This document shows positions 1 to 45,373 of a DNA stretch of 64,000 nt, one piece after another. The DNA is from Eledone cirrhosa. Taxonomy: Eukaryota. Made by a program: the position numbers and the translations under genes. Every line of letters begins with the position of its first letter. Position 1 is the stretch's first letter. The DNA lies in assembly GCA_964016885.1 (NCBI GenBank), contig OZ024740.1:212412001-212476000 (forward strand). Reading direction: 5' to 3'. The notes under the pieces are model-generated. The model did not search any database, had not been told where the DNA came from, and saw nothing but the letters and a program-made list of their open reading frames with translations.

Positions 1-1643
1 TATGATCGCACAGCGTGTACTCCTGGACGGACTCACCTACATAAACTTTTCGGTTGAGGATAGGCGGCCTTCATGTTACCATTGGTTTAGCAGGGGTCAC
101 CTGAGGGCTTCCTGTCCTAAATTAATGAACCAAAAAAAGGCTCTTATGCCGACACCCATCAAAACAACACAACCACCAACACCACCACAACAACAACACC
201 AACACACAAAAATAACCACAACAAACACAGTCTCACCCAACCCCACTCCACCTAAAACCACTGCAAAATCACATACAGACACAACAGCTCCCCAATCACA
301 CAGACGATACAACAGATGAGGCTATCTCGCCATCACCCAGTGAAGACGAGGGAGAATCGCATCGCTCGAAAAGAAAGAAAAGACATCACAAAAGCAAAAA
401 ACCAGCAAACACTACCACAAACATACAACCACCAACAGAAACAACAAAAACATCACAAACAAAACCCCCACCTCCTGAAAACAAAATACCTACAACAAAA
501 CGAAAGCACACACAAGAACTACAGACAAAAATTAACACAACACAAGAAAATTACACTTACACTTACATAAACACTGAAAACAAAACACTAATGGAGACCA
601 TCACGAACGACCCTTCGGCTTTCACCGAAGGGAAAACTTTCGCCCACTCTATTAAAAATAGCAAAAAACTGAACCTAAAACTGATTAGGGTCCCTATATA
701 AACTTATAGGTCCCTAAAAGAAACATTTGAGAAGGATGTGGGGAATTCCTGCGTGAAACCACTCAACCGCGTCCTTCTCAAATGTCTCCCCACCCCAGAC
801 ACCCCCATCCCACCAGACCCCACCCCACCAAACATCTGCGTCCCCACCCCGCCGGAAACCACCACCCATCCAGACAACCCCTCCAACACCCCCATGGAAA
901 TCGTGCGGCCTGGTCCCCAGGAGACGAGGGGTGAGTGATCTCTTTTCCTCTTTTAACTTTTCAGCACCAACATGGCCAATATAAGAATTGGATGTGTGAA
1001 CGTACGCGGCCTGGGGATGACCTGGAAACAGGGCAAACTCTTAAACGACCTCAGGTCGCACAGTATGGATGTGGTAGCCATTTGCGAGTCCAGGATCCAC
1101 GGTGAAGGACAGCTGGCCCCATCTTCGATGACTTTGAGATCTACGCATCTCTCTGTCAACCGGCGGTGGGGGCGGAGTTGCCGTTTTGCTGCGGAAACAC
1201 CTGGGCCTCGTAACACAGACGGTACATATGGACCCGGAGGGTCGACTGGTGGTCCTAGATGTTGACGGTAGTGAAGGTGGAGCCTTCAGGCTGGTGGCTG
1301 CATATGCCCCATCCGGGACACCGCGGCCAGACTTCTTCAAACGTCTAGAGACTTTTCTGGGAACGTCTCGGACCCTCGGGCCTTCTCTCTATATCAGCCT
1401 GTAGGTTGAGGAAAAGGAGGAGGAGAGGAAAGGAGTACAAACGCTTCGTACTCCTGGAGATGAGGGTTGCACATTTTTTTTCGGGGGTATGTGTTACTCA
1501 TATAAACTGTCTCCCTCTATTGGGGAAAATCGACTAACTTTTTAAATTCCATTTGTGATAACATTTTACACGTTTTTATTGTATCTAAACTTCCCCCTTT
1601 ATATTTGTCTCCTTCTTTTGTGCCCCTGTGGCTAATAAAAAAA
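1..1643 (+). mobile_element. Tx1/L1-clade LINE copy 1, internally deleted, 5' part outside the window
   Basis: ORF1 3' half, then the APE endonuclease N-terminus (NVRGL...VAICES...GGAFRLVAAYAP) fused at about 1377 directly to the ORF2 C-terminus GPSLYISL*. The 3' UTR ends CCCTGTGGCTAATAAA. Confidence 0.85.
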
Positions 1644-1653
1644 TATATCTATC

Positions 1654-4600
1654 AGACGTGTGTAACTTCGCGGAGAAGTTTCCGTTAATTTATGTAAGAA
1701 AAAAACGTAAGTTTTTAGTTAAATTTTATATCATTGTGTAACTCGACCCCCCGTCGGGACCTTCAGGTGGTGGGTCAACTCATTTTCGCCCCTACAGGGG
1801 CGGAATATCCATTTGAAATATTTTTTCTCCATCGAATCTTGGAAAAAAATATTGTAAAATTTTGATTACGTTATGAACGCTGCGTCCAACGATAATGGTG
1901 GTGGAGAGGCGGTAAGACTACAAAGCTCGCAGTCAACAACGTCTTCTTCACTAGATACTATAGAGATGGAAAGACGAAATGAAAATGTAAAAACGAATTC
2001 ATATCCAAACAACACAAATGACACCTAACAATTCAATGACAACAAAAATAACAGCAACACCAATAATGATGATAAAAGTAACAATGATAACAACAACAAA
2101 GAAAAAAATAAAGACAACACCAATAACACCAGCATCAAAGACAACAACAACACCAAGGAAAATACGAATAATACCAACATCGGTGACAACTGGAATAACA
2201 ACAACAATAACAACAATAATGACAAAACCACCAATACGGATTCTACAAAGAAACCAAAACTTCCTTTGCAGAGAAAGTTCAAAAAAAGGAGGAATTGATA
2301 TATCTCGACATAACAAAAGCTGAACAACTTTTAAAGGACGCTAGGAGATATGTCACTTTCGAAAAAAATGGTGCTTTCAGCATCAATTCTCCGGTAGAAA
2401 TTCGCAAGGATACTGCTCTCAAAACGATAGTTTTTAGGACAGTTTCCAATTCTACCCGACAACCAGTCCAATTGACGGCCCAAAATTACTCTGTGTCGCC
2501 AATTGTATCCAACCTCTACACCTTTTTCCCTACATACATGGGAAAAGGGACACAAAAGATCAGAATCACGACTGTCACACCAAAGGTGAACATATGGTGG
2601 ATACTGTGCGGCTTCATCAATTTTGATGAAGACAGAATACTGTCAGTAGGAAAGTCCCCCAGAGATGTATTCAATGGGACTAGCATTGAAATTCTGGTGC
2701 AAATGAGCCCAGAGCGAATAGCTATGATCCCACAACGTGTACTCCTGGACGAACTCACCTACATAAACTTTTCGGTTGAGGGTAGGCGGCCTTCACGTTA
2801 CCATTGGTTTAGCAGGGGTCAGCTGAGGGCTTCCTGTCCTAAATTAATGAATCAAAAAAGGCTCTTCTGCCGACACCCATCAAAACAACACAACCACCAA
2901 CACCACCACCACAACAACAACACCAACACACAAAAATAACCACAACAAACACAGTCTCACCCAACCCCACTCCACCTAAAACCACTGCAAAATTACATAC
3001 AGACACAACAGCTCCCCAAGACATACCCCTCCCCAATCATACAGACGATACAACAGATGAGGCTATCTCGCCATCACCCAGTGAAGACGAGGGAGAATCG
3101 CATCGCTCGAAAAGAAAGAAAAGACATCACAAAAGCAAAAAACCAGCAAACACTACCACAAACATACAACCACCAACAGAAACAACAAAAACATCACTAA
3201 CAAAACCCCCACCTCCTGAAAACAAAATACCTACAACAAAACGAAAGCACACACAAGAACTACAGACAAAAACAAACACAACACAAGAAAATTACACTTA
3301 CACTTACATAAACACTGAAAACAAAACACAAATGGAGACCATCACGAACGACCCTTCGGTTTTCACCGAAGGGAAAACTTTCGCCCACTCTATTAAAAAT
3401 AGCAAAAAACTGAACCTAAAACTGATTACGGTCCCTATACAAACTTATAGGTCCCTAAAAGAAACATTTGAGAAGGATGTGGGGAATTCCTGCGTGAAAC
3501 CACTCAACCGCGTCCTTCTCAAATGTCTCCCCACCCCAGACACCCCCATCCCACCAGACCCCACCCCACCAAACATCTGCGTCCCCACCCCGCCGGAAAC
3601 CACCACCCATCCAGACAACCCCTCCAACACCCCCATGGAAATCGTGCGGCCTGGTTCCCAGAAGACGAAGGGTGAGTGATCTCTTTTCCTCTTTTAACTT
3701 TTCAGCACCAACATGGCCAATATAAGAGTTGGATGTGTGAACGTACGCAGCCTGGGGATGCCCTGGAAACAGGGCAAACTCTTAAACGACCTCAGGTCGC
3801 ACAGTATGGATGTGGTAGCCATTTGCGAGTCCAGGATCCACGGCGAGCGACAGCTGGCCCCCATCTTCGATAACTTTGAGATCTACGCATCTCTCTGTCA
3901 ACCGGGGGGTGGGGGAGGAGTTGCCGTTTTGCTGCGGAAACACCTGGGCCTCGTACCACAGACGGTACATCTGGACCCGGAGGGTCGACTGGTGGTCCTA
4001 GACGTTGACGGTAGTGAAGGTGGAGCCTTCAGGCTGGTGGCCGCATATGCCCCATCCGGGACACCGCGGCCAGACTTCTTCAAACGTCTAGAGACTTTTC
4101 TGGGAACGTCTCGGACCCTGCAAAAAAGATCTGTCCGAGGTGCGTGCGAGACGAAGAAACCTTCGCGCACGCATTCATACACTGCCCGGGCGTCACTGAC
4201 CTGTGGGGCTATGTAGAACGACTATTGTCGCGGGTGGGACCAATCCAGTTGATCACCGAGTCCATTGTCATGATCAAACCGCCACTCTCCTTCAAAAACG
4301 AAGGAGAGGCGGTTATTCTTTGTGTGATAGCTATGGCGAAAGAGGTTGTATGGTGGACAAGGTTGAAAGGGCTGAGGTCAGACACCTTTCTCTCCGGCCA
4401 ACAACTGATTCTTTTTTTCAAATACTACTTTGGAAGAAGAATCAGGATGGAGGAGAGGTGCTGTACCCCAGCAAGTTTTATGAAAGGTGGGTGAAAGTGG
4501 CGAGAATGGCCCGAGTGAATGGGCCTTCTCTCTATATGAGCCTGTAGGTTGAGGAAAAGGAGGAGGAGAGGAAAGGAGTACAAACTCTTCGTACCCCTGG

Positions 4601-4788
4601 AGATGAGGGTTGCACATTTTTTTTTTAGGGGGTATGTGTTACCCATATAAACTGTCTCCCTCTATTGGGGAAAATCGACTAACTTTTTAAATTCCATTTG
4701 TGATAACATTTTACACGTTTTTATTGTATCTAAACTTCCCCCTTTGTATTTGTCCCCTTCTTTTGTGCCCCTGTGGCTAATAAAGAAA
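1654..4788 (+). mobile_element. Tx1/L1-clade LINE copy 2, non-autonomous (RT deleted)
   Basis: 5' UTR, frameshifted ORF1 (about 1874-3679), and APE 3713-4113 joined to the C-terminal CCHC region (CPRC..ET..HAFIHC). Near-identical to copy 1 where they overlap. Confidence 0.88.
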
Positions 4789-5020
4789 TATATCTATCTA
4801 TCTCTCTTTCTGTCTGACGTGTGGAACATCGCCGGTAAGCTTTTTTGTTAATTTCTATGCAAAAAAACGATCTAATTGTTTGAAAAAACACAACACTTTG
4901 CAGATTAACCCCCAAGCTGAATTGTCAGCAGGGTGGTAATTCCATTTTTCGCCCCCGCAGGGGCGAAAATTTTATTTTAAAAATTTGTTTTAAAATATCA
5001 GATTTTACAAAGTAAATAAC

Positions 5021-6913
5021 TTGAGCAACACTAGAACGCTGGAGAACGTTAATAGTGAAAACAGAGAGAAAGTGGCAGATATTAACGTTATATCTGCTTC
5101 TGCTACTATGGACGTCGCCATAGATACAACTGTCACAAAAGAAAAAAATATATTAACATTTGAAAATTTTACAATTTCTACCGCGGAAAAAAATAACAAT
5201 AACACACAGGAAAACACAGCAAAAAAACCCATTGACATACATACACATGAAAAAGACATCAACAACTCTACAGATACATCTACACATAAAGTTTCACCTC
5301 GACAAGGAACTGAGATTTCCAATAAAGATAACAACATCATCAACAGCAATACCACACAAAAAAAGAAAATGTCTTTCGCTGACACAGTGAACAAGAAACA
5401 AGATCTTATAAATCTTGATATCTCCAACGCAAGAGATATGCTCCAGCAAGGGAGAAAATGTGTAACTTTCGAAGAAAGAGGTGGGTTTAGAATTAACTCA
5501 CCCCTTGAAATAAAGGAAAACACAAACCGCGGATCAATCACTTTTAGGACTGTGTTAAATTCGTCAAGAAAGCCGACATTTGTTAATCAAGCAGATATAG
5601 AAGATTCTTTCAAGGAAATTCTAGCAAATGTCGATTTTCTCCAGCGAGGAAAACACTACGAAAGTGTTTCCGTACTGTTTAAAAGCGAGGCACTCGCCCC
5701 AAAAAACTCTGTGACACCAATAGTGTCAAAAGCATACACCTTTTTCCCTACATACATGGGGAAAAGGACACAAGAAATAAAAATAAAAAACATACCTCCA
5801 AGCATTTACATCTGGTGGATCTTGGCTGGCTTCGTAGAGCCAGAAACAGACATAATACTTTCGATACGAAAATCTATTCGACAAAGGTGGGCGGGCACAG
5901 ATTTGGAGATTCTGTTGCAAATGAAACCGGAGAGAATCTCCAAAATACCCGAAAGAGTCGTTATTGATAATAACAACAAAATAAACATTTCGGTAGAAGG
6001 ACGAAAATTTCATTGCTTTCGCTGTGGTAGCACAGCTCACCTAAAAGCTTCTTGTCCACAAACACACAACAACATCATAAAAAAACGCTATTACCAACAC
6101 CAACACCAAAACAACCACCACCACCACAAATACAACGACAGACGAAACGAGCAACCACACCAAAACAAACAGACACTCAACCAACAACAACAGAAAAAAC
6201 AGAGACAACACCCCTGAAGAACACATCCCCACTCCATCCCACTCCATCAAACACTACCACAAACACACATACCGAAACACCACCACCACCACACAACATA
6301 CCCTTACCCCCCACACCTGACGATGATTATTCATCGACGGATGAAGCTGCTTCTCCTCCTTTAAGTGAAGAAGAGGGAGAACCGCGGAAATCTAAAAAAC
6401 AAAAAAAAGAGACATCACAAAACCCCCAAAACTCCAATCACCAACACCAACACACAACCACAGACACAAACAACAACACAAACAACACCACAGTCAAACA
6501 CCCCCCTATCAGCAAAACCAGCACCAACACCACCCCAAACACAAGCACCCACCATAAAAAGAAAACTCCCGGACGAACAACAAACTAAAACAACACAACA
6601 AAAACACAAACAACAATACGCATAAATCAACGCAAACAACAAGAGTTTGATGGAGGTCATCTCCCAAAACCCCAAGGTGGAGACGGAGGGCAAAACTTTC
6701 GTCAATGCAGAATCGTCTCCACACCTTAAACTTATAAGGGTTTCTATGGAAACCTATAAAGACCTAAACATTAAATTTTCACAGGACGTGGGCAACCCCT
6801 GCCACAAACCCATCAACCGCGTCCTGTTTAAATGTTTCCCCACCCCACCCAACACCCCATCCAGCACCCAAATGGAGATTGAACAACCCGATCTCCAGGA
6901 AACGAAAAGGTAA
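5021..6913 (+). pseudogene. Tx1-like ORF1 (RRM-like region, CCHC knuckle, Thr/Pro-rich linker), frameshifted
   Basis: Three consecutive ORF pieces in different frames (5021-6217, 6052-6588, 6647-6913), homologous to ORF1 of copies 1 and 2. Confidence 0.8.
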
Positions 6914-6954
6914 GTGCACCTTTCGCCCTTTTTCTCCAACTTTTCCTCACCAAC

Positions 6955-9900
6955 ATGGCTGGTTTACGAGTTGGAACCGTGAATGTGCGTGGCCTAGGGA
7001 TGCCCTGGAAACAGGGCCAACTTTTAAACGACCTTAGGTCACACAGTATGGATGTGATAGCCATCACCGAGTCCAGGATCCACAACAGGCAGCAACTAAC
7101 CCCCATCTTCGACGACTTTGAGATCTACGCATCTCTCTGTCAGCCAGGAGGTGGAGGTGGAGTGGCTGTTATGTTTCGGAAGAACCTGGACGTCGGAGTA
7201 CAGCAAGTACACTTGGACCCGGAGGGTAGACTGGTAGTCCTAGACGTGAACAGTATCGGAGGAGGAGCCTTCAGACTAGTGGCCGTTTATGCCCCGACCG
7301 GGCAATCGCAATCACGGCCAGACTTCTTTAAGCGTCTAGAGTCTTTTCTGGGAACGTCTCGCTCCTTACTTTTAGTGGGGGACTGGAATGGTATCCTAGA
7401 TGCACGATGGCTCTATGTGGGAGCATGTCCCAGTAGAGCGGGGTGCAACAGCCTCAAAACTTTAATCGGCCAATTCCAACTGGCCGATAGGTATCGACTG
7501 GATTTCCCGACTGCACCACAGTGGACGTGGGTAAACCGCAGTGGGACATCTAGATCGTATTTAGATAGGTTCTTCATTAGAGAAAGGGACAAGGAGATGT
7601 TAAGCTGTCCACGAATGCACATGGTTGCCTATTCAGATCACAAGTTAGTCGTCTGCTTAGTCAACCGTGATAGAATACATAGACAGGGTCCCGGATACTG
7701 GAAGCTGAACGTGTCGTTGCCGGCACGTAAAGCTTACAGTGAACGGATAAGTAGACTAGTCAAGCAACAGTTAACGGGAGCCATCGTCAACAATAGATGG
7801 TGGTACTCTCTCAAGAAAGCAATTAGAATAGAATCGATAGGGTATAGCAGAGAGTTAGCCTTAGAGAAAAACAGAATAGAAAGAGAACTAGTAGCCAAGG
7901 TAGATGAGGCACTTAGAAGTGGCAACGCGGCTAGAGTGTTAGCGTCGAGAACGGCACTGGACCAGTTCTTCGATGCGAAACACGAAGGCTGCGTGGTCAG
8001 AAGCAAAACACGTGCTCTAGGAAACGAAGGAGCGAAAGCTGTCAGCTGGGCCCGAGTGGCGGAGGCAAAAAGTGGCAACAAGACCACGATTCGGTCTTTG
8101 AAAGACAAAAACGGACGCGTGCAACTTGACCCCAAGCAAATGTGCGCGGCCTTTCAGCGGCACTTTGCGCGACTGTTTGAGCAGAACGACGGTGAGCCGA
8201 ACGGGGCAATGGACTTTAATTCATACCTCGACGGCCTGCCGCGTCTCTCGAACACGGAAGCCGAGTTCTGCGAAAGACCGATCACGGACACTTAGATACG
8301 GGACGCTCTGGGCCGCTGCGGGAAACGCAAGTCACCCGGTCTAGATGGTCTACCCTACGAATTTTACATAGGCATGCCAGACTTGTTCTCTGGCGTTCTC
8401 GAAGCCGTCTACTGCAATTGGCAGCAGAACGGGAGAATTCCCAGTTCTGCAGGCAAGGGCGTAGTAACGCTGATCAGGAAAGACGAGAACAAGGTGGACG
8501 AAATTAACAACTTCAGGCCCATAAGAGTTAAACACAGGCTCAACACAGAGTTAAAAATTTTGGCCAAGGTGCTAGTGACGAGGCTGGCGCTTGTCGTCGA
8601 GAAACTGGTAGGGAAAGCGCAAACGTGTGCAATCCCGACCAGGTCCATACACGACAACCTCCACTTCATGCGATACATCATAGAGAGGGTGGGTAGTAAA
8701 CCCGGCTTCGGTGGGGCTCTGATCAACTTGGATCAGTCTAAGGCATTCGATAGGGTCGACCATCGATACTTGGAAGCGGTTCTCAAGGCGGCCAGTTTCG
8801 GTCCCATGTTCAGAGGATGGATCGAGGCGATGCACACCAGCATCTGCTCGAGGGTCAAGGTGAATGGCTACCTATCGGAGCCGTTCGCAATCACGCATTC
8901 CATTCGACAGGGATGCCCTCTCTCCTCCATTCTGTATGTATTGACTCTAGAGCCACTACTGCGGAAATTGGAGCTGTTGCAGGGCATCCCCCTAGAACCG
9001 GGACTGCGCAAAGCGGCGTCGGCTTATGCCGACGACGTAACGGTAATGGTGTCGAGCACCTCAGAAATCGGGGTGATCGGCAACTTACTGAAAGAATACG
9101 AAACGCTGACGGGAGCAAAATTAAACCCAGACATGTCTGTCGGTTTGCAACTCGGTACGTGGAGAGGCAAACCGATTACATCCGACAGCGTCGTTGGACG
9201 CTAGACGGACGGACCGGTGAAATTGCTCGGGGTCTGGTTCGGTCCAGACCTCCAGTTGGAGAAAAACTGGAACGAGGTCACGGCCAAGGTGTTTGCACTC
9301 ACTCAGAAGTGGGCAGAGTGCAAACTGTCCTTGAAATGTCGATCGGAGGTGGCGAAAACTTTCATAGCGTCCGTCATCTACTACCGCTTGACTGTCGTGC
9401 CTTGTCCCCGTGAACACCTCGCCAAGATGGAACGCATGCTCTTCTAATTTCTGTGGAAGAAGCAGGCTCCGCTGGTGAGGAGATCCGTCTGCTGTCAGCA
9501 CCCTTCCAACAGAGGGCTGGGAATGCCGTGGCTGATGATGCGCAAACATGCGCTGAGGCTGCGGCATCTCCAGGTATTCCTCACCGACCCCCAACCGGTG
9601 TGGGCACCGTTTGTGAGACAGGCTTTCCCACAGCTCGTCTCGCTAACGGAGCTGCAGTCCTGGGTGAAGAAAAGACCGAAAACGATGGGCGCCTGGCACA
9701 TTGAATGCGCTCAGGCGCTCACAGTCCTCTGGCAAGCGGGCGCAGCAATCAGTGGAGACTCCACTTCGACATTCTATAGAGGGATTGTACGTTACAAGGG
9801 CGACGACGTGCTCGGAGAGACTCAGGTCGTCGAAGAAGATGAGCTCACCAGTCTGTTTGGTAGGACTTTCCGCCCGGGACCTATGGACAACTTCCAGAGG

Positions 9901-10410
9901 TCCCTGGCCTGGCAGTGCTACCGAGGAGCTCTACCGGTTCGTGACAAGATCTACAGGCACGGACGCCCTGGCAGTGATCCTTCCAAGAGGACGTGTCCAA
10001 GATGTGCGCAGGACATTGAAACAGTTCTGCACGCAATTGTACACTGCCCGGGCGTAAGCGACCTGTGGAACTATGCAGAACAACTGCTGTCGCGTATGGG
10101 ACAAATCCAGTTGACTGCCGAGTCCATAGTAAGGATCAAACCGCCAGCCTCTTTCAAAAACGAAAGAGAGGCGGTTTTCCTCTGTACGGTGGCTATGGTG
10201 AAAGAAGTTATATGGTAGACGAGGTTGAGAGGACTGAGGACAGATGCCTTTCTCTGCGGACAACAATTGATTCCCTTCTTTAAGTATCACTTTAGAAGGA
10301 GAATCAGGGTGGAGAGAGAGGCACTGCACCCCAGTAAATTTACTGAAAGGTGGGTGAATGAAGCGAAAATGGCCCGAGTGATTGGGCCTTCTCTGTTTAT
10401 AAGCCTGTAG
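6955..10410 (+). pseudogene. Tx1-like ORF2 (APE + RT + zinc finger) with four in-frame stops
   Basis: The pieces starting at 6955, 8374, 9217, 9475 and 10225 are all in one frame. Stops at 8293, 9202, 9445 and 10216 replace residues that are E, W, K/R and W in sister copies. Confidence 0.9.
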
Positions 10411-10759
10411 GTTGAGGAAGAGAGCAAAAGGAAGAAAGGAGCACTTGCACAACACGCTCCTGGAGTTGAGGGTTGTTCTATCGACGGGGTATTAAACAAG
10501 CCATTTTTGGCGCTTGCCCCCTATTGGGGATTTCGATTGATGAAATTGTTTGTTTTTATATTTTTTACACGACTGTATGTAAAATCCCCGGCATGTCTTT
10601 GTATTGTACCCTTTTCTTGTTGCGCCCTTGTGGCTAATAAAGAAATCTATCTATCTATCTATCTATCGATCGATTGATCTATCGATCTATCTCTCTCTAT
10701 ATATATATGAAAATTTGACACCTAGTCCATATTATTATTAGTATTGTTCACCTACACAC

Positions 10760-11710
10760 ATATAAATAACACTTATCTCACAGAAAACCCATACAACCCC
10801 AAAAGAAAAATTCCTCAATGACATCGAAGATTTCCAGCAAACGCTTTCCAGGGGGATGTACAAAGACATCATTCAGGAGAGGGCCACAACCAGTCAGAAC
10901 GACGGAAGAACCGTCCTTCCTCCACAAGAACTGTGGGAAGTGGTCTTTCCCCATTTTCCCACTCTTTTTCAACATTGCCTTACTCAGAATAGGCAGTGTA
11001 AATGCACGTAGCCTGGTATCATCATAGAAGCAGGGCCACCTGCTCAATGACCTCAGGTCAATAAACATAGATGTGGTGGCCATCAGCAAGAATTTCCGAG
11101 GCACAAGCCTTCGCACCAGTCTTCGACGGTTACGGTGTGTACGCATCTTCAAGCCGACCGGGATCGGGAGGCGGAGTAGCACTGTTGTTTCGGAAAGGCC
11201 TGGACCCAGAAGGTAAGCCGGTGGTGCTGGACGTGAACAGAAGCAAAGGCGATGCTTTCAGGCTAGTGGCTCTTTAAACCTCGCAAACCTGTTCAGACGT
11301 TTCCAACTTTCTGAGAGGTACCGACTGGATTTCCCGAATGTGCCAATGTGGACATGAATAAACCTCATGGGTCATCCAGATCGTACGTAGATAGGGTGTT
11401 TTGTAAAGAAGTAGATAGTTCTAGCATAGGTTGCCCACAATTCAAGATAGTCAACTACACGGACCACAAATTTGTGATTTGTGTAATCGACTTAGATAGG
11501 CTTCATAGACAGGGAGGTCCACAGCGGGTGCATGTTACTCGATCCCGGGAAAATGTGTTCGGCTTTTCAGCATCACTTCGCTCGGCTCTTCGCGGACAGC
11601 GGCGGGCCGGATAGCAGAATGGACTTTAGTGCTTACCTCGACGTTTTGTTGCGGCTCTCGTTCACTGAGGTGGAGTGTTGCGAAAAGCCGATAACAACTT
11701 TAAAGTACGG
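10760..11710 (+). mobile_element. Degraded Tx1-like fragment (ORF1 end plus APE region), related to the 32.4-38.6 kb family
   Basis: LRIGSVNAR, GGGVALLFRKGLDPEGK, SRSYVDRVFCKE and YTDHKFV, with multiple deletions. Confidence 0.8.
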
Positions 11711-12161
11711 GAGGCAACAATTAAAAATTTGTTGTAGTGATGTCTACCATAAATTCATAGCGAAAAGCCTTCAAAATATTTTAAATAAACATACAGTATA
11801 TTATTAAATATACAATACGTATATTCATATGAATGTACGTATCGCTATTTCAGAGCTCCAACACAAATTTCTAATTGTTGCTGGGCCAGCTACCGCTCTG
11901 TATGTTAATGATTTGGTTTTTTCCTAGAATATATATTATGTACGAAGCTGAATTTTTGGCTTTTGAAGCGCTGAGAATATATGTATGTATATATATAAGT
12001 ATAAAGAAAGTGCTTAATGTCACCTTCCTTTTAAATGTATATTTTCAGCGGAAGTTGTCAAGGACTATGTTATCTTCAATGTCATTTTCTCTTAATGATA
12101 TAATATGGTTTAATAAAGATCTGATGACTATTTTCAGCTAAAGTTTTCTTCATTGGATAAA

Positions 12162-12246
12162 ATGGTATCACTTCAGAAGCTGCGTAGGAGTTTTGTTATA
12201 TTTGTAACAATATTATTTGTTGCAATTATAATATTGAAATTTCAAC
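12162..12246 (+). CDS. Coding exon 1 of HtrL/YibB-like type II membrane protein (signal anchor MVSLQKLRRSFVIFVTILFVAIIILKFQ)
   Basis: AAAATGG start context. Basic N-tail plus a hydrophobic stretch of about 16 aa, ending in the consensus donor C|GTAAGT (phase 1). Acceptor-like TTTTCAG at 12131-12137 upstream. Translated by hand; not in the ORF track. Confidence 0.7.
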
Positions 12247-12938: not shown

Positions 12939-12985
12939 GCCAGGAATTTGTAGAAAAGACTAAGTTTAAACTTATAGGAGCCTAT
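12939..12985 (+). CDS. Coding exon 2 of HtrL/YibB-like gene (RQEFVEKTKFKLIGAY)
   Basis: Acceptor TTTACAG| and donor |GTAAGA. The 47-nt open exon converts phase 1 to phase 0, exactly bridging exon 1 and exon 3. Confidence 0.6.
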
Positions 12986-13707: not shown

Positions 13708-13743
<36 letters not shown>

Positions 13744-13853
13744 GCCTGCCCACCCAGCCAGTGGGATGGCGTCATCGTATGGCTAAAATAGCACGTGCTG
13801 TGACCAGCGGCGCCGATGGGCGCCCGACAGACTGGTCGGTCAAGGTGATCAAG

Positions 13854-32406: not shown

Positions 32407-32447
32407 TATACTACTACTACTATTAATAATAATGATAATAATAATAA

Positions 32448-35400
32448 GAATGCTTTTTTTATTAGCCATACAGGGCTCACATTAAGGAAACATTAAATAC
32501 GGTACAGGAAGATACAGTGTGGGTTTTTGTGTAAAATAAAATTTATAAAAGTGATTAAGAAAATAAACAAAAAAAAAACAAATTCCCCAAAAGTGAGGGG
32601 ACTCCAAGGATTACTCGTGGAGAAAGCCCGCAAAAAGCCACGGTCACCATGGCTGCTAGGGCAAGCGCCCTCTCCCAGTTGTCCTCCCTCAATACTACAG
32701 GCACACGCTCCGGGTAGGCGCATTCACACGGGCCATTCTTGCTTCTCTCACTCCTACCCACCCCTTTCAACAAACTAGCTGGAAAGCTACACTTCCCTTT
32801 CCACCCTGATTTTCCTTTTCAGGTAAAAACTGAAAACGTTAATGAGAGCGTCGCCGAAGAGGAAAGTGTCCTCTTCAACCCTTTCAGACGCGTCCACCAT
32901 ACAACCCCTTTCACCATAGCCACCGGGCAGATAAAACTGCTTGCCCTTCCTGGTTAAAGGAGGGCGGTGGGGTAATCTTCATGATGGACTCAGCTAATAG
33001 CCTGATCCACACTACACGCGACAGCAGATGTCTAACATAAACCCACATGTCAACGATACACGGATACTGGACGAGTGCGTGTTAGACTGTTTCGTCGTCC
33101 CATGCGCATCTCGGACAGGCCCGGCTGACGGCACTTCTATGCCTGTAAAGTTTATCTCGAACTGGCAACGTTCCCCGGTAGCACTGTCAGGTCAGGGATT
33201 TCTGCAAGGTATCCATTGGCCCTGGACTGAAAGTCCTCTGGAAGGTAATAGCTAGTTGGATTTCGTCGGCACCAAGACTTTCCCAAAGGACGTCGCCGCC
33301 GCTCTTGCCCTCCACTAACATTCTATAGAAAGCCAAGGTGGAGTTTCCACCGATCCCAAAGCCCGATTGGCAAAGGGCAGTGAGCGTTTGGAGACATTCC
33401 AATTTCCAAGCGCTTGCTCTCGGTTTCCGCTTGACCCAGAACTGCAGCTCCTTCAAGGAGATGAGTTGAAGAAAAACGTGCCAAGCGAAAGGAAACCTCA
33501 CATGCTCACCGCCGAGGAAAATCTGGAGATGACGTAGTCTCCACGTAGCGGGTGTTGACAGCAGATGGAACCGCATCCCTTCCACAAAAACGAAACAACA
33601 AACGATCTAGTGCAGTCAGACGAGTCTTAGGACAAGGCACGAAGATCAGGCGTACATCACGCGTACATCACGCCCGATTGGTCGAGGGCTGTGAGAGCCT
33701 GAAGACATTCCAGTCTCCAAGCGCTCCCTCTCGGTCTTCGCTTGACCCAGGACTGCAGCTCCGTCAAGGAGACGAGCTGGGGAAAGACGTGTCTAGCAAA
33801 CGGCGACCACACCTGATCACCGTCGAGGAAGAGGTGGAGATGTCGTAGCCTGAGCGCGTGTCTGCTCATCATCAGCCACGGCATGCCCAGCCCTCCGCGT
33901 AGCGGGTGTTGACAGCAGATGGACCGCCTGACCACCGGAGAGCGTCCCTTCCACAAAAAGCGAAAGAGCAAACGCTCCAGCGCAGTCAGGCGGGGCTTAG
34001 GACAAGATACGACGGTCATGCGGTAGTAGATGACGGATGCGATGTACGCGTTAGCCAACTCCGCTCGACCTTTCAGGGATAGCTTCCTCTCGGCCCATTT
34101 CTGGGTGAGAAAAGCCACCCTGCTCGTCACCTCGTCCCAGTTTTTGTCCGTCTGGAGGTCCGGACCGAACCAGACTCCTAGCAATTTAACCGGTTCGTCC
34201 GTCCAGCGCCCGACGACGCTGTTGGACGGCATGGACCTGCCTCTCCAGGTGCCGAGCTGCAGGCTCACTGACTTTTCCTGGTTGATCATTGCTCCTGTCA
34301 CCGCTTCGTATTCTCATAGTGTAGTGCCGATCGGCTCGATGTGTTTGGCGTTCGACAACACTACGGTGACATCGTCCGCATATGCTGACACGGATCTTCC
34401 GCATCCTAGTTCGCGCCGGACCCCCCTCAACGTCTCCAGTTTGTGCAGTAATGGCTCGAGAGTCAATACGTACAAGAGGGACGAGAGGGGACATCCTTGG
34501 CGGACCGAGCGCATGATGTTGAACGGTTCCGAAAGATGACCGTTCACTCTCACCACAGAGCAGATGTCGCTGTGCATGGCAGCGATCCAGCCTCTAAAGA
34601 CGGGCCCAAAGCCAGCCGCCCTCAGGACTGCCGCTAGGTAACGATGGTCGACCCTATCGAAAGCTTTCGACTGATCTAAATTGATCAAGGACCCACCCGT
34701 GCCAGGTTCCCTAGCTACCCTCTCTACGATGTATCACATGAGGTGGAGGTTGTCGGGGATGGATCTGTCGGGAATGGCGCACGTCTGCGCCTCTCCCACC
34801 AGACCACCAACGACAAGCGCCAACCTCTTTGCTAGCACCTTGACAAAAATCTTGAACTCTGTGTTTAGTAAAGTTATGGGCCTGAAATTATCTATGTTAT
34901 CCCCCTTGTTCGGATCCTTTCTCAGCAGCACCACAGCTCCTCGGCTGACAGAGCTGGGAGTTCTCCCGTTCTGTTGCCAGTTGCAGTAGACGTCCGCCAA
35001 GAGGCCTCCGAACAAATCTGGCATCTGTATGTAAAGTTCATAGGGCAGACCATCCAAACCAGGCGATTTACCCCTTGTGCGGCCAGTCATTGCCTCCCGT
35101 ACTTCAGCGGCTGTTATCTGCTTTTCGCAACACTCCGCCTCAGTGGCCGAGAGCCCCGGCAGTACGTCGAGGTAGACACTAAAGTCCATCCCTCGATCCG
35201 GCCCGCCGCTGGCCCCGAACAGCTGTGCGAAGTGTCGCTGAAAAGCTTCACACACTTGCCCGGGATCGAGTAGCATGCGCCCGTCGTGGTCCACCAAAGA
35301 CCGGATCGTGGCTTTGTTGCCACGACGCGCCTCCGCCACTCGGGCCCATTGAACGGCTTTCGTCCCCTCGTCTCTGAGAGCACGCACCCTAGCTCTGACA

Positions 35401-38400
35401 ACGCAGCCTTCGTGCTTTGCATTGAAGAATTGGTCAAGGGCCAATTTCGCCGCAAGTATGTCGGTCGCGATGCTTTTGCTAAGCGCCTCGTCTAATTTTG
35501 TAACTAATTCTCCCTCTGCTCTATTTTTCTCTATTGCTAAAGCCTTACTAAACCTAATGGACTCTATTCTAATTGCTCTTTTCAGAGCAAACCACCACTT
35601 GTTGTTGACGATGGCCCCCGTCAACGCCCGCTTAACTAGTTCGCTAATCCGGTCCCTGTAGGCCTTGCGCGCTGGTAAGGACGCGTTTAGCTTCCAGTAG
35701 CCGGGTCCTCGTCTATGAAGCCTATCTAAGTCAAGCACACATATCACGAATTTGTGGTCCGTGTTGCTGACTATCTTGAATTGTGGACAGCCTATGCTAG
35801 ACCTATCTATTTCCTTACAAAATAATATATCTAGATATGATCTGGATGACCCTATACGATTTGTCCAAGTCCACATTGGCACATTCGGGAAATCAAATCG
35901 GTACTTCTCAGATAGTTTAAAACGCCTGAGCAGGTTGGTGAGGCTTTTGCACCGTCCTCCCCTATCCGCTGATCCCACACAGTCCCAGCGTGCATCTAAG
36001 ATCCCGTTCCAGTCGCCCACTAACACTAAAGAGCGGGACGTTCCAAGAAAGGTCTCCAGACGCCGGAAGAAATCAGGCCGCCCTGCTCCTGTCGGGGGAT
36101 AGACGGCCACTAGCCTGAAAGCTTTCCCGTCTCCGCTGGTCATGTCTAGCACCACCAGCTTACCTTCTGGGTCCAGGAAGATGGCCCGTATGACGAGATC
36201 CAAACCTCTCCGAAAAAGCACAGCAACTCCTCTCCTCGATCCCGGACGGCTGGGAGATGCGAACACATCGTAGCCGCCGAAGATCGGTGCGAAGGCCCGT
36301 GCTTCGGAGATTCTGGTCTCGCTGATGGCCACTACATCTATGTTTAGTAACCTGAGGTCGTTGAGCAGGTGGCCCTGCTTCCATGACAACCCCAAACCAC
36401 GCGCATTTATGCTGCCTATTCTGAGTGAGGTCATGTTGAAATGGAGAGGAAAAGATGGGTAAGACCACTTACCTTACTTCTCGTTGAGGAAGGATGGTTT
36501 CTCCATCCTTTTCACTGCTTGTGACCTCCTCCGGAAGGATGTCCTTATAAATCCTCCTGGAGAGTGTTTGTCGGCAGTCTCCGATGTCTTTGGGGAATTT
36601 TTGTTTTAGTGTCGTGCACGTATTCTGTGTGATGCGAGTGATTTGTATGTGTGGAGGTGGTGTGAACTTTTGGGTTGTTGTGTAGTCTTTTTCTGTGATG
36701 CTGGTGTTGTGTTGGATGTAGTGTAATAATTGGTTGTTCAAATTTAATGCTGTGTAGTGTGTATCGTTTTGGTTGTTTTGTTTTGTTTGCGTTTGTTGTG
36801 GGTTTGTTTCTGTTTCGCTATTTGGTGACTTTTGTGGTGTTGGTGATGGTGGTGTTGGGGTTAATGATGGTGATGGTGTTGGTGTTTGTTGTGATGGGGT
36901 TGGTGATGCTGGTGTGGATGGTGGCATATCTGTACTAACTTTTTTGATTGATAGTTTATTTGTTTCCCTCTGTATTTTGTTTTTGGACGGGGAGGGAAGA
37001 GAATTTTTTCTTTTTTGGTTTCTTTTTTTCTTTTTTCCTGATACCGTTACCCACTCCTCGTCGTCACAATCTGTCTCCAGTTGTGATAGGCCGGGGAGTG
37101 GAAAATCCTCCACAGGCGTTAGTTTTGGTTGTGGCGTGGTGGATGGTGTAGGCGGTGGTGCTAGTTCTGGCGCGTTGGGTGGTGGTGGTGTTGGTTCCTG
37201 AGGTTGTTGCTGTTACAGATGCTTCTCTTGTTGGTGCTACAGTGGTTGTTGCCATCTCTGCTGCTGGTGGTGTTGATGGTTGAGTCACTGGGGTGGGTAA
37301 GAGAGGTGGCCTCAACCTTTTAGCCTGAGGGCAGAAAGCCCTTAGGTGGGTTCCTTCACCACAAACGACACACCTAGGCCTTCTTCCCTCGACAATTACG
37401 GTGAGGTGGCTGCCGTCAGTGAGGTCTATTACCTCTGGGATATCCTCAATGCTTTTTTGGTCTGCTTGGATAAGGAGCTCCATCCCTGATCCGGACCAGT
37501 TCTCCTGCTTTTCTTTCGCTATTTCGATTATCTTGGTGTTGGCTTCGATGCCGGCGAGGACGGCAGCTATTAGCCAGGGAATTTCGATGGCCGGTGGAAC
37601 GTGGGTAACCCTGATCTTTACGAGTCTCTGGCCACAATAGCTTGGGACGAGTGTGAAGTCGTCACTTCTTAATGGGGCCATGGAGTGTTCTCTAGTCTCC
37701 TGTGGTGTTTCAAAGAATACGTCCACGGTTCCATATTTTTACCCACGTCTGATGTGAGTTTTTTTTCCCCGCACATGTCCCAAAGCTATTTCGATTTGGG
37801 ACTCGGATGCCCGTTCCACTCGGCGCGATTTTATATTAATTGTTCGATAAGACACGATGCATAGGCGCTGATGCTCCATTTTATTATGTGTGGGGGGGGG
37901 AGGCTAACCCTGTACCTATCTTTCTTTACCATTTTTTTGGCTTCTTCTAATTCCTCCTGAGTTACCTGAAATGCTTCGCACTGTTTTGCTACTCTGGCAA
38001 AACTCAGAGTAGTCATTGTTGCTGTTGTTGTTATCGTTATTTTTGTTATTATTAATTTTAGTTTCAGTTGTGGTGGTGGTGGCGTCAGTGGTGTTCGGTG
38101 TGGAAGAGTTCATTTTGGTTGAATTCATTTCGATATCACGAGTTAATTTATTTTTTTCTTTTGTTTCTGTTGTCGCGGTGGTGGTGGGGGTGGTGGTTGT
38201 CGCGGTGGTGGTGGTGGCGGCTTTAACACTTGCAGTCATTGGTAATGGCGGGAAATGAATGTCTGCCTGAGACAAATTTAAAATATTGCTACTGCTTATA
38301 TTTTTAGTGTTGGCAAACGTAGTAATATTTACAATGGTGGTGTCGGTGTGAGGTGTTAGTTTGTGAGGAAGGAATGAATCTGAGTCATCCATGATTTTTC

Positions 38401-38606
38401 AAAGAAAAATTTTTGTTTGATAATTATAAAAGTTTAAATTTTGGCCTTAAGGCCCTAATTTTTTTGGGTGTCCTTTTCAGATAACAATGTATGTGCACTT
38501 ATATACAGTTAACAATAAAAATTTTCCATGAATGGCAATTTTAAACAACTGAAAATAACAAACCTTTGCGGAGCTCACGATGATACGATTTGCTACGTAG
38601 GTCGCC
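32448..38606 (-). mobile_element. Tx1/L1-clade LINE (family A), near full length, inserted in (TAA)n
   Basis: ORF1 38392-36469 (CVVCGEGTHLRAFC knuckle) and ORF2 36434-32695 (APE, RT YADD, frameshifts). AATAAA 3' end and (TAA)n on both flanks. Confidence 0.92.
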
Positions 38607-38634
<28 letters not shown>

Positions 38635-38638
<4 letters not shown>

Positions 38639-39440
38639 AATCGGAGACTGAAGGACTGATTATATCAGCACAAGATCAGTGTCTGCCAACAAAAAATTAC
38701 CAAGCCAACATAATAAAAAATGGATGCAACCCATTATGCCGTGTATGTAAAAAACAACCAGAGACCATTGATCATATAATTTCAATGTGCAGTCCTATAG
38801 CTCCAACCGAATACCTAAACAGGCATGACAGAGCTGCACAATACATACATTGGATAATGTGTAAGCATTTTGACCTGTCCCATCAAAAGAATTGGTGGGA
38901 GCATCAACCACCTCCCATACTTGAAAAAGATCACATCTCAATCTTGTGGAACTTTAGCATCCAAACCGAAAAATAGATGCAAATAGACCTGATATAATAC
39001 TGAAGGACTTTAAAAAGGGTGTATGCCTGCTAATTGATATGTCCGTTCCAATAGACAAGAATGTATCTATAAAAATATTTGAAAAATTGAGCAAGTATAA
39101 GGACCTGGAGATAGAAATTGGAAAAATGTGGAAATTGAGAACTAAAACAATACCAGTGGTTGTAGGCGCTCTGGGAATGATACCTAAGAGGTCTAATGAT
39201 TACTTATCGGAAATCCCAGGAAACCCGCGTATAGGAGAAATACAAAAGATAGTACTAATGGGAACTGCCTATATACTAAGGAAGATTCTGTCAATATAAG
39301 TACATAACAAGTCTAAACACCTAAAGATGCATGTGTGAGTATGTTCTTTCTTGAACATGGAGGACCTTGTTGTCTCTTGAGGTCACTGGTTGTGACTTGG
39401 TGATAACTCGTATGAACATAAAGCAAGATAAATGCAGCTG
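38635..39440 (+). mobile_element. 5'-truncated R4/Dong-like RLE non-LTR retrotransposon
   Basis: ETEGLIISAQDQ, CRVC..PETIDHIISMC (CCHC), RHD, RPDII..LIDMSVP, EKLSKYKDL and IPVVVGALG. Flanked by (TAA)n on both sides. Confidence 0.85.
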
Positions 39441-39459
39441 TAATAATAATAATAATAAT

Positions 39460-42400
39460 GATTTCATTTATTGACACAAGGGCCGACATATAGGGGACAA
39501 CACAAAAGACTGGGACAGTGGGGTTTTACAGAAAAATCGAGTAAATAATATGAATAACAACAAAGTAACAATAACAAAGTAACAATAAAGTAACAATAAA
39601 ATTACAAAAAGAAAAAAATTCCCCAATAGGGGGGATGACCACTTAGAGTTCCCTCAGGTACCCCACCAATCCTGAACGACCCGACGCTTCGAGAGCACCC
39701 TAGAAGGGCACCCCTCACCTCTTCAAATTTACCTACCTACAGCCGCATGACCAGAGTAGGCCCACTCACACGGGCCATTCTCGCCACATTCACCCACCTT
39801 TCAGCAAATGTACTGGGGGGCAGCGCTTCTTTCTCCACCCTCACCTTCCTTTCCAAGTGAAACTTGAAAAAGTTGATAAGGGATTGGCCGAAGAGAAAAG
39901 TGTCTGTCTTCAGTCCTTTCAACCTCGTCCACCATACAACCTCTTTCGCTACTGCCACCAGACAGAGAAAAATTGCCTGCCCTTCGTGGCCAAAAGAAGG
40001 CGGCGGGTCGATCTTCACTATGGACTCGGCCGATAGCCGGATCCTTTCTACACGCGACAAGAGCTGTTCAACATAACTCCACAAGTCAGTAATGCACGGA
40101 CACTGGACGAGTGCGTGCAGAACGGTTTCGTCGCTCTGCGCGCATCTCGGGCAGGTCCGTCTGACAGCACTTCCGTGCCTGTAGAGTTTATCTCGAACCG
40201 GCAGTGCCCCCCGGTAGCACTGCCAAGCGAGGGATTTTTGGAAATTATCCATCGTCCTCGGCTCGAAATTCCTCCGGTACAGACTGGTTAGTTCGACTTC
40301 GTTGACTCCCAGAGCCTCTCCGAGTTCGTCGTCGCACTTGCCCACCACTAATCCTCTATAGAACTCGAGAATGGAAGTTCCACTGACCGCATTGCCCGCC
40401 TGGTAGAGAGCAGTGAGTGCCTGGCAACATTCCAGATGCCAGTCATCCAGTCTCGGTCTCTTCTTGACCCAGGACTGCAACTCAGTCAAAGAAACGAGCT
40501 GCGGAAAGGCCCGTCTGACAAACGGCGACCACACCATTTCACCGTTTAGGCAGAATATCTGGAGATGCTGCAGCCTCAGCGCATGCCTGCGCATCATTAG
40601 CCACGGCATGCCCAGCCCTCCACGTAGAGGGTGCTGGCAGCAGATGGACCGCCTCACCAGTGGAACCTGACCCCTCCACAAGAATTTGAAGAGGAGCCGC
40701 TCCAAGATGGCGAGGCGCGAACGGGGGCAAGGGACGACAGTCAGACGGTAGTAGATGACGGACGCGATGTACGCGTTCGCCACCTCCGCCCGACCTTTCA
40801 GTGATAGCTTCATCCTAGCCCATTTCTGGGTGAGACTGACTACCCTGCCCGTCACCTCGTCCCAATTCTTATCCCCCTGGAGGTCTGGCCCGAACCAAAG
40901 CCGTGGCAACTTTACCGGTCCGTCCGTTCAGCGCCTAACGACGTTGTTGGACGGCATGGACTTGCCTCTCCAGGTACCGAGTTGCAAGCCCACTGACTTT
41001 TCCGGGTTAACTTTTGCTCCCGTCAACCTTTCATATTCCTCCAATAAGTTGCCAACCACCTCGATTTCTGAGGTGTCCGACACCATCACGGTGATGTCGT
41101 CCTCATAAGCCGACACAGCCTCTCCGCGTCCCGGTTCGAGCGGGATGCCCTGCAACAGCTCCAGCTTCCGCAGTAAAGGCTTGAGAGTCAATACGTACAG
41201 AAGGGATGAGAGAGGGCACCCTTGACAGACCGATCGGGAGACCTGAAACGGTTCCGAGAGGTGGCCATTAATTTTGACCATCGAGCAGGTGCCGCTGTGC
41301 ATTGCAGCGATCCAGCTTCTGAGGACGGGGCCGAAGCCAGCCGCCTTGAGGACAGCCTCCAGGTACCGATGGTCGACCCTATCGAATGCTTTTGATTGAT
41401 CTAAATTGATCAGAGCCCCACCAAAGCCAGGTTTATACCCTACCCTCTCTATGATGTATCGCATTAGGTGGAGGTTGTCGTGTATGGAGCTGGTTGGGAT
41501 TGCGCAAGTTTGCACCTCCCCAACCAAATCCCCGACGACAAGCGCCAACCTCTTCGTTAACACCCTGGCCAAAATCTTAAACTCTGTGTTGAGCAGAGTT
41601 ATGGGCCTGAAATTGTCTAATGTGTACCTCTTGTTCTCGTCTTTCCTTATCAGCGTCACTAGGCCCCGGCTCACAGAACTGGGAATACTCCCGTTTTGCT
41701 GCCAGTTGCAGTAGAGGGCTTCGAGGAGATTGGAGAACAAGTCTGGCATATTTACGTAAAGCTCGTAGGGCAGACCATCCAAACCGGGTGACTTGCGCCT
41801 CATGCAGCCGACAATGGTATCCTGAATCTCGGCTGAAGTAATTGGCCTTTCGCAGCGCCCAGCGCCAGCCGTCGAGAGTTGCGGCAAGCCATCGAGGTAG
41901 GGACTGAAGTCCGCCACCATCTCTGACCCGCCACTTCCCCCGAACAACCCAGCAAAATGTTGGCGAAAGGCCTCACACATCCGCTTGGAATCGTTCAGCT
42001 CGTGTCCGTCTCGGTCCGTCAAAGACCGAATCGTGGTTTTCTTACCACGCTGTGCCTCTGCCACGCGGGCCCATCGAACAGCTTTGGTTCCCTCCTTTCT
42101 CAGAGCACGCGCCTTAGCTCTGACAATGCAACCTTCGTGTTTCGCATTGAAGAAATGGTCTAATGCCTTTCTCGCCGCTAGCACATCAGTTGCAATGACA
42201 CGACCAATAGCCTCGTCTAACTTATCTACCAACTCCCCCTCCTTTCTATTTTTCTCTAATGCTACTTCTTTGCTAAACTCTATCGACATTACTCTAATCT
42301 CTCTTTTGAGAGCCCCCCACCATCTATTGTTGACGATTCCCCCTGTCAACTTTTTCTTAACTAAATTGTTGACCTGGTCCCTGTAAGCCTTACGTGCCGG

Positions 42401-45373
42401 AAATGACATGTTTAGCTTCCAGTAACCAGGTCCTAACCTACGCGTCTTATCTAGGTCGACCATACAGATCACAAACTTGTGATCTGAATAGGCAACCGTT
42501 TCAAAACGTGGACAGCTTACACTATTTCTGTCTATTTTCCTAATGAATATCCTGTCTATATACGATCTAGATGACCCTATGCGGTTAGCTCAGGTCCACA
42601 CTGGCGCATTAGGGAAATCTACTCGGTACCTGTCAGACAGTTGGAACTGGCTGATCAGGTTCTTGAGGCTTTTGCACCCCCCGCTCCTATCGGATACTCC
42701 AACACAGTCCCAGCGTGCGTCTAAGATGCCGTTCCAGTCCCCCGCTAACAGTAAAGGGCGAGACGTACCCAGAAAGGCTTCCAGGCGTCTAAAGAAGTCC
42801 GGCCATCCTTCCCCAGTAGGAGCATACACGGCCACCAGTCTAAAGGCACCACCTTCATTATTGTTCACGTCCAGGACCACCAACTTCCCGTCCGTGTCCC
42901 GGAAGATCGACCTTACCTCGAGATCCAGGCCTTTTCTAAACAGCACTTCCACCCCGCCTCCCATTCCCGGCCGGCTAACAGATGCAAAGATCTGATAGTC
43001 GTCGAAAATGGGGGCTAGTGCGCGCGTGTCGGAAATCCTGGTCTCGCTGACGGCAATTACATCCATTTCTAGAGACCTGAGGTCGTTGAGCAGGTGACCC
43101 TGCTTCCAGGACGATCCCAGGTCTCGGACATTTAAACATCTTACTCTTAATACGGCCATGTTGGCAGGTTAAACAGAGAGAGAGGAAGGTTTACTTACCT
43201 TCCGGGCTCTTGTGAAGGTCGGGTTGTTCGTCCTCCATAGTTAGTGGGGTTTCTTTTGGGAACCCCTTTAAAAGTCTTGAAGTGAGTTTTACGTTCGGGG
43301 TTCCCGTGTCCCGAGGAAAGCTGTCTCGTATTTCTTTGAATATGTCGAGCGACATTCGCACCAGAACCAAATCTTCCGGCACGCGAAATGTGCTCGATTT
43401 AAACATTTCCCCCTCTTTTTGTATATTTTCACTTCGTGCTACGAGGGCCATCAGTTCCTTGTTGGCCCTCCTGACGAGCACGAAGTTTTGTATGTTTTGT
43501 TGGTGTGATTTTATTTGTTTGCGTGGCTGTGATGGTGATGGTTTTGTTGGTGTTGTTTCGGTTGTATCTGTGTTTGTTGTGAGTGCGGTGTCTGTGGTTT
43601 CAGATGTTTGTATGTATATTTGTTCTTGCGTCTGTTTCGGTTGTTTGTGTTTGGGGGATTCTGGTGATGGTGATGGTGATGGTGGTGTTGATGTTGGTTT
43701 TATGGGAGAGATGTTTGCGTGGGTGGTGTCTGCGTTTTTTTTGTGGGTGCTTTTGTGCTTTGTTGAGTTTTCTTTTTTTTTTTGTGTTTCCTTTTTTGTA
43801 TTTTGGGGGATTTTGGATTTCCCTCATTTTCACTACTGGTAGATGAGGGGTATGTGTCTGTAAGTGTGTCTGTATGTATGTTTATGGTTTTATTGGTGTG
43901 TGTATTATTTTGGAGAGGGGGAATTTGACAGCTTTCCTCGTTTCCCCCCTGGGTGGTCAATGTTGGTGGTTGTCTGTCTATTGGTGTTGTTGTTGGTGGT
44001 TTTGCCGGTGCTGGTGTTGGTTGTGGTCCTCGCCCCGGCGTCGGCAGCAGTGGAGCCTTTCGACCCCTTGCCTCTTTCAGCAGTTGAGGGCAGAAGGCTT
44101 GCAAATGGGATTTTTCCCCACAAACAAAACACTGCGGCCTTTTGCCTTCGGTCATGATGTGAATGACCGTCCCATTCTGAAGGCGGATGTGGTCCGGGAT
44201 TGTCTTCACATTCTCGGGCCTGATCTGGAGAAGGATCTCCAGGTCAACCCAGGACCAGTCCTCTCTGGCCGTTCTGGTCACTTCTATAGGGACTGTATCC
44301 GTCCCCTCCACAATCACACATCCCAGAAGCCACCACATGTCAAGTCCTGGTGGGATTCTGGGAATGCGGATACGGGCCGTTCTTTTTCCCATGTGGGAGG
44401 GGTACATTATGACGTTGCTGGTTTTGCAAGGAGTCATAGAGTGTTGCATAGTGAGGGCTTCTGACTTGAACAACACCGAAATGGTGCCGTACTGTCTGCC
44501 CCTCTCTATGTCCTGGGTGTCTTCTCTGATGCACCTCAGCGCGACTTCAACATCTTCTTGTGGGATTAAAGCTGCCCTTTTGGTTTGTGCTGAGATGCAT
44601 CTATAATGCACTCCACTGCCTCAATAGCTTCTACCGGGACAGTTAAGTTGGCCCAAGTTTGCTCTTGCTTGAAGAGCTTCCATGCCTGGGCCAACTTTTC
44701 ATCTTTGTTTGAGAGGTCCATGCTGAAGCATGGCCTCTTTTTTGCTGCTGCCGGCAGCGAAAGTGTTCTTCATGTTTTCGTTGTGGATTTTGTTGTCGTT
44801 GTTCTTGTTGGTGTTGTTGTTAGCACTCTCGCTGTTATCATTGTTGTCTTTGTTGCCACCGTTGTTCTCGGTGCAGTTGGTATTGTTGCTGTTGGTGTTG
44901 TCGCTATTTGTTTTCATGTTAGTGGTGTTGATATTGTTGTTGTATTTGTTATTTTTCTTTTTTGTTATCTGTATTTTCGTTGTCGCTGTTACTGTCATTT
45001 TTTTCAAAATTAGTGTTCTTATTGGTATCATTGGTGTCTTTGTTTACCTTGTTTGTGGTGGTGCTTGTGTTATCCATGTGTGTTAATTTCGCTGTAGCGC
45101 TCCTCTCAACTTCTACGTCGTTGTCGCACGACAGTCGACATATCGCTAGGGGGCGTGGCTCAGCCATGTTTTTTCTTCTTCGTAAATTTTTTAACATGTA
45201 TAAAAAAGTTCAAATATTTGGGCGAAAAGGCCCAAATATTATACTTTCCCCTTCACGGGGCAAAGTCTAAGGGCTTTTATCCCTTACACAACAAGAAATA
45301 TTTAACAACAAATAATTTTAACAGGCAAATAAAGCGACTTACTGTGAGCGAGCAAAATACGTCCGCTTAGACC
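39460..45373 (-). mobile_element. Tx1/L1-clade LINE (family B), full length, inserted in (TAA)n
   Basis: ORF1 about 45168-43191 (CFVCGEKSHLQAFC). ORF2 43159-39737 has APE, RT and CPRCAQSDETVLHALVQC, with a few stops and a frameshift. (TAA)n on both flanks. Confidence 0.93.

Follow-up and report, generated by a model that had tools for sequence, protein, structure and literature searches.

Two-ORF LINEs in the window

The window analysed here, a 64,000-nucleotide stretch of a 3.0 Gb eukaryotic genome, contains five copies of two-ORF, L1-clade LINEs, in which ORF1 encodes a CCHC zinc knuckle and ORF2 carries APE endonuclease (PF03372), RT (PF00078) and zf-RVT (PF13966) domains. Relatives elsewhere in the genome retain an uninterrupted ORF2 of 1139–1145 amino acids. 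The L1-clade assignment follows from the two ORFs, the APE, RT and C-terminal cysteine domains of ORF2, the lack of LTRs, and the 3′ poly(A) signal with a simple-repeat tail. Insertions lie at (TATC)n or (ATT)n, and a tandem arrangement is common: TATC repeats adjoin 13 of 14 family E 5′ ends, and families A, B and D adjoin ATT repeats. Target-sequence preference is a trait of the Tx1 group according to PMC4494074; since a reference search recovered no named Tx1 element, 'Tx1-like' is used as a working label, and the putative assignment to Tx1 is based on architecture and target preference. Family letters are our own: copies 1 and 2 belong to family C′, copy 3 to E, copy 4 to A and copy 5 to B, in agreement with the initial annotation, which had assigned the five copies to four families. 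Family F is very young and forms head-to-tail arrays of at least six elements, with a short tandem repeat upstream of the 5′ end (L092–L094, L244–L260).

Three copies lie on the forward strand. Copy 1 comprises a donor motif, GTGAGT, at 931–936 (phase 1, with the ORF1 stop two codons further on), a pyrimidine spacer at 937–974 with a YAG 7 nt ahead of the ORF2 ATG (972), and an ORF2 remnant at 972–1404 that has an internal deletion near 1377 and ends in TAG. In copy 2, the donor GTGAGT (3672–3677, phase 1) precedes an ORF2 (3713–4547) that carries an internal deletion near 4120 and also ends in TAG, with a competing AG 7 nt upstream. Copy 3 has an ORF1 at 5108–6912, with the CCHC zinc knuckle, that is frameshifted in this copy; its donor GTAAGT (6910–6915, phase 2) overlaps the TAA stop, its ORF2 (6955–10410; APE, RT, zf-RVT) is interrupted by stops and ends in TAG|G, a candidate acceptor, and its 3′UTR (10411–10641) has a purine-rich start, a hairpin and AATAAA, with (TATC)n coming next. 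After copy 3, at 10780–11700, lie the decayed remains of a sixth copy, A/D-like and with a mutated donor.

On the reverse strand, copy 4 has a donor GTAAGT at 36467–36472 (phase 2) and a broken ORF2 at 33660–36434. The copy is 94–96% identical to family A down to about 33750 and 78–82% identical beyond; its distal end is an older, non-A element at 32460–33640. Copy 5 has a donor GTAAGT at 43193–43198 (phase 1) and an interrupted ORF2 at 39737–43159 that ends in TAG|G. A donor-like GTAGGT stands straight after the ORF2 stop in family B (39731–39736 in the window, reverse strand).

The breakpoints of the ORF2 deletions in copies 1 and 2 are not at the donor. These two deletions and one at locus L173 are independent, and all three fall on nearly the same endonuclease-coding spot about 410–420 nt into ORF2, which is not a GT site and may be a hotspot. 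Elsewhere in the window, 49002–49898 (forward strand) holds an uninterrupted reading frame of 298 amino acids matching HtrL_YibB (PF09612, E 4e-20), a family described as bacterial.

A conserved splice donor motif at the ORF1 stop

Consensus 5′ splice sites had been reported at 931, 3672 and 6910 on the forward strand and at 36472 and 43198 on the reverse strand, with a pyrimidine tract and CAACATG downstream of each; we found all five donors, and the downstream features of each, as described. Counts of the donor, gap and CAACATG arrangement in the window are 3 and 2, where shuffled sequence would be expected to give 0.06 and 0.04; as the copies are related, this shows only that they are not random DNA.

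A genome search for ORF2 starts that contained no donor term matched 9,459 sites. GTRAGT or GTAGGT was found upstream in 93 of the first 100 listed, which cover 36 Mb at the start of a single contig and from which family E was dropped by a filter letter; six others had one-base variants and one had lost the motif by deletion. Among 15 lineage representatives, 58–97% identical across the endonuclease region, a donor-like site was kept in every one, in both reading phases and with all three stop codons. Positions G−1, G+1, T+2, R+3, R+4 and T+6 are invariant in all 15 and G+5 is present in 14, whereas the same lineages all agree at only 6 of 38 fourfold sites. Variants are confined to GTAAGT, GTGAGT, GTAGGT and GTAATT, the spacer between donor and ORF2 measures 25–52 nt, and family G2 keeps the donor although its stop is 13 codons away.

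As initially proposed, the donor phase varies, being phase 1 in copies 1, 2 and 5 and phase 2 in copies 3 and 4; beyond the window, phase 1 is found in B, D, C′ and G2, and the phase 2 form reads Arg, then TAA, TGA or TAG. The further claim that this variation excludes protein constraint was overstated, since in phase 2 bases −2 to +1 make up the Arg codon and +2 to +4 the stop codon, and G+5 is free of codons in phase 2 only. With the motif partly codon-constrained in each phase, its conservation alone is suggestive rather than proof, and the donor is apparently under selection. None of 15 distant metagenome loci examined (of 33) had a donor on the ORF1 stop, and an outgroup sought in viral contigs yielded nothing.

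In the 5′UTRs of several families a further donor-like motif stands close to the 5′ end; after it come TAAC and a YAG that lies within or next to a GC hairpin. Examples are GTAAGT in copy 2 (1707–1712, forward strand), a sequence also present in relatives, GTAAGC in copy 3 (4835–4840, forward strand), where most relatives have GTAAGT, GTAAGT in copy 5 (45337–45342, reverse strand), and loci L093, L096, L098 and L106. The corresponding putative intron was missing from none of 28 5′ ends (0 of 14 in family F, from 17 fetched, and 0 of 14 in family E, from 20 fetched).

The ORF2 end as a candidate acceptor

The initial annotation had paired these donors with a CTGTAG at the end of each ORF2. The hexamer is present at 1404, 4547, 10410, 32695 and 39737, but that at 32695 belongs to the older element and not to the one that carries the donor at 36472. 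Across families, an AG at the ORF2 stop was found in 13 of 15 lineages, with a weak context in B and D; it is absent from A and A2, whose intact copies end in CTGTAA. This CTGTAA type made up 13 of the first 100 listed ORF2 ends, and A/A2 was the commonest type among the first 100 listed ORF2 starts.

The eight lineages of the (TATC)n clade (F, G, H, C, C2, C3, C′ and E) have the best context, in that the ORF2 stop ranks 2–5 in pyrimidine content among 95–122 YAG sites, and after it come a G and a stretch rich in purines. All eight also have a second AG 7 nt upstream of the stop, in phase 2 of ORF2. In B, B2 and D, the ORF2 stop ranks 14–23 of about 120 YAG sites. Within one codon past the ORF2-end AG, 10 of 11 families have a stop codon in phase 1 or 2; in 6 of the 11 this stop is in the phase of that family's donor, and in the other five it is not. 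Taken together, the acceptor side is weaker than the donor side, and the ORF2-end AG is only partly supported as its candidate partner.

Two other candidates were set aside: a CAG in the family A 3′UTR, considered as a compensating acceptor, is also present in lineages that keep TAG, and two conserved AGs inside ORF2 are embedded in codons and have left no fossil. At three family E loci on different contigs (L031, L035 and L036), the same 7 nt between the two ORF2-end AGs are missing, which removes the stop.

Chimeric families are joined at the donor cut

A search for ORF1 ends without a following GT brought chimeras to light. In three families, A2, G2 and T8, ORF1 ends exactly at the donor cut and continues into another element after a CAG, with out-of-register offsets of 43 nt in A2, 23 nt in G2 and 76 nt in T8. 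The 5′ parents of A2 and G2 lie outside our sample, and their donor position was taken from D and C.

In A2, a D-like ORF1 end is fused at the D cut to an A tail past a CAG 43 nt before the donor; the first unit matches D at 35 of 41 positions against 24 of 42 for A, and the second matches A at 36 of 43 against 23 of 43 for D. Identity to family A is 64–76% over the 5′ half and 95–97% from the junction on. The family is abundant and intact, occupying at least 11 of the first 100 ORF2 starts listed, with an open ORF1 (712 codons) and ORF2 (1139 amino acids) at locus L107. G2, which was first met among ORF2 starts listed without selection by the search that lacked a donor term, has a C-like ORF1 end fused at the cut to a G element past a CAG 23 nt before the G donor (17 matches), and its downstream part is 94–97% identical to a G locus, L102. 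In T8, found at four loci by a pattern that fixed the cut, a C-type ORF1 (93–97%) stops exactly at its donor cut and G2 sequence takes over directly behind a CAG, 76 nt upstream of the matching point.

Across each of the three joints only AG is shared, the 3′ parent has CAG, and long in-register homology was available. Among 129 unique ORF1 tails, a set enriched by targeted searches, A2, G2 and T8 alone had gained out-of-register sequence close to the donor, and in all three the gain ends at the cut; the remaining differences were single-copy deletions or changes in spacer length. D does stand immediately upstream of A in tandem (L239 and L240). Pyrimidine content is poor at two of the three fossil acceptors (0.44 and 0.50), and microhomology deletions that do not involve AG also begin at the donor (L173, L183 and L158). 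Two further loci (L180 and L187) show a G2-type junction after a fully C-type ORF1, either by a repeat of the same splice or by in-register recombination. The chimeric junctions look like fossils of splicing between tandem neighbours.

ORF2-less copies and splice joints

HAL1 elements consist of ORF1 only, and are what a retrotransposed ORF2-less RNA would become. The initial annotation had called for a search for precise ORF2-less retrocopies; eight junction patterns, applied to the genome for families other than B, B2, D and I and for acceptors other than those starting with G and a non-T base, found none, nor any dispersed ORF1-only copies with a 3′ tail in the same families. The first pattern matched six sites, all point mutants or a 7-nt deletion, the second five point mutants, and two others nothing, even though their halves were verified on real loci (one fits only two of five F loci). 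Both matches of a further pattern were ORF2 ends. A pattern with 24 matches returned three T8 junctions among small deletions and substitutions; its trailing-letter filter hid G2, and its complement returned 18 matches, 17 of them G2 and one a deletion one base away from a precise splice. The last pattern, run without a complement, returned six small deletions and one non-AG deletion.

How much this absence weighs depends on the mobility of such RNAs. L1 proteins favour their own RNA (PMC5860796), which makes the absence weigh less; strict 3′-end recognition, described for other LINEs in PMC3747384, would, if applicable here, make it weigh more. In four contig runs of unrecorded kind on copy 3, none of the 15 joints listed of 209 starts at the donor, and for X4 alone, possibly DNA, on copies 2 and 3, none of seven joints did, which is evidence neither way.

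Discussion

In LINEs, ORF1p far exceeds ORF2p, and LINE lineages repeatedly gain new 5′ ends. The motif on the ORF1 stop may bear on how both come about. Three hybrid families joined exactly at the cut make a working donor likely, and together with the conservation of the motif they now support its initial reading as a functional 5′ splice site. The three junctions were probably made by the spliceosome: splicing would run from the donor of one element into another, either in trans or along a read-through transcript that spans tandem neighbours. The chimeric RNA, which keeps an ORF2, would then retrotranspose in cis.

That the donor normally serves to splice out ORF2 and yield an ORF1-only mRNA is a reading that we favour tentatively. 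The usual partner would be the AG at the ORF2 stop or 7 nt before it and, in family A, a site in the 3′UTR. Unspliced RNA would act as genome and ORF2 template, and spliced RNA would supply excess ORF1p, so that splicing may control the ORF1:ORF2 ratio and avoid NMD. As ORF2-less products would need ORF2p in trans, few fossils of them would be expected.

The strongest competing explanation, though less likely, is that selection on the donor serves U1 binding and not regular splicing, for RNA stability, suppression of early polyadenylation or nuclear handling, and that the chimeras reflect rare mis-splicing of an unpaired donor. It would account for a donor much better conserved than any acceptor, for the A/A2 ORF2 ends without AG, for the lack of ORF2-less copies in our searches, and for 5′UTRs that carry donor-like motifs and yet showed no intron loss; such a U1 role is described for plant Ty1/copia in PMC5580714. 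It fits less well with the acceptor-like ORF2-end AG in eight lineages, and AATAAA and ATTAAA are absent from ORF2 in all four families checked, which leaves nothing nearby for U1 to protect.

It is improbable that the motif has no splice function, being kept by descent either as an Arg codon with a stop and its +4 G termination context or as a site for protein binding, with chimeras produced by DNA deletions within tandem arrays or by template switches at 2-nt microhomology. In phase 2 codons constrain most bases of the motif, phase shifts occur between close relatives, non-AG microhomology deletions arise at the same spot, and a human L1 donor is retained because of an overlapping RUNX3 site, according to PMC5860796. 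Yet the motif outlives phase shifts, three different stop codons and divergence to 58% identity, it persists in G2 with the stop 13 codons off, and two junctions found independently of any pattern fall on the cut within about 105 scanned positions, for which we estimate a rough chance near 1e-3.

Still less probably, the main partners of the donor lie downstream of the element, in the next tandem element or in host exons, with ORF1 exported as a first exon. Each of the three fossil junctions fits this reading and tandem arrays are common, but the element would gain no clear benefit, and the fossil set is biased, since only ORF2-retaining products fossilise easily. A mini-intron within the spacer, whose excision would take out the ORF1 stop and join the two ORFs, is very improbable: YAG precedes the ATG in C, I and B2, and C would fuse in frame, but the first AG lies merely 28–61 nt from the donor, the frame is not conserved across families, and the pattern searches found no spacer-less copy, though such a product would move in cis.

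Splicing from the ORF1-stop donor, as we propose it, has parallels in known systems. Subgenomic gag splicing, with the spliced RNA shown, is described for the Arabidopsis Ty1/copia element EVD (PMC5580714), which resembles our elements in that a U1-type donor is conserved towards the end of its structural gene and an excess of structural protein is proposed. That element is a one-ORF LTR element, whereas here a two-ORF non-LTR element, known from DNA alone, has the donor on its ORF1 stop, and an AG at the ORF2 stop is missing in A/A2. As in human L1 SpIREs (PMC5860796), retrotransposed copies with a junction at a donor and an AG are read as fossils of LINE splicing; SpIREs, however, are 5′UTR or 5′UTR/ORF1 deletions within one element and dead ends, while the junctions here connect one element to another, bring in extra sequence, leave both ORFs in place and gave rise to families that spread, of which A2 is open and common. 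In mRNA/L1 5′ chimeras credited to trans-splicing (bioRxiv 10.1101/2025.02.02.635956), the 5′ partner likewise stops exactly at a donor and a near-full-length LINE is joined at an acceptor, but that partner is an exon of the host, whereas in our chimeras its place is taken by the entire 5′ half of a second LINE family, cut at the LINE's own conserved donor. The Tx1-group elements Kibi and Koshi (PMC4494074, with no splice site mentioned in the available part) share the L1-clade architecture and simple-repeat insertion and differ in their targets, which here are (TATC)n and (ATT)n. In the literature searched, which lay outside subscription papers and Repbase notes, we found no earlier account that places a splice donor on the ORF1 stop of a LINE, and the available parts of PMC10901741, PMC5120415, PMC3747384 and PMC13282606 do not mention one.

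The literature cited here regards splicing in LINEs as harmful or accidental. In contrast, the lineage described here keeps a donor under apparent selection, and its host genome contains three family-founding junctions at that very nucleotide. It is plausible, and we suggest it with slightly more reserve than the routine removal of ORF2, that this LINE lineage runs a retrovirus-like two-RNA programme and that the same selected donor also moves whole 5′ modules, promoter and ORF1 together, onto the ORF2 of neighbouring elements in tandem. If so, splicing would found successful new LINE families rather than kill them.
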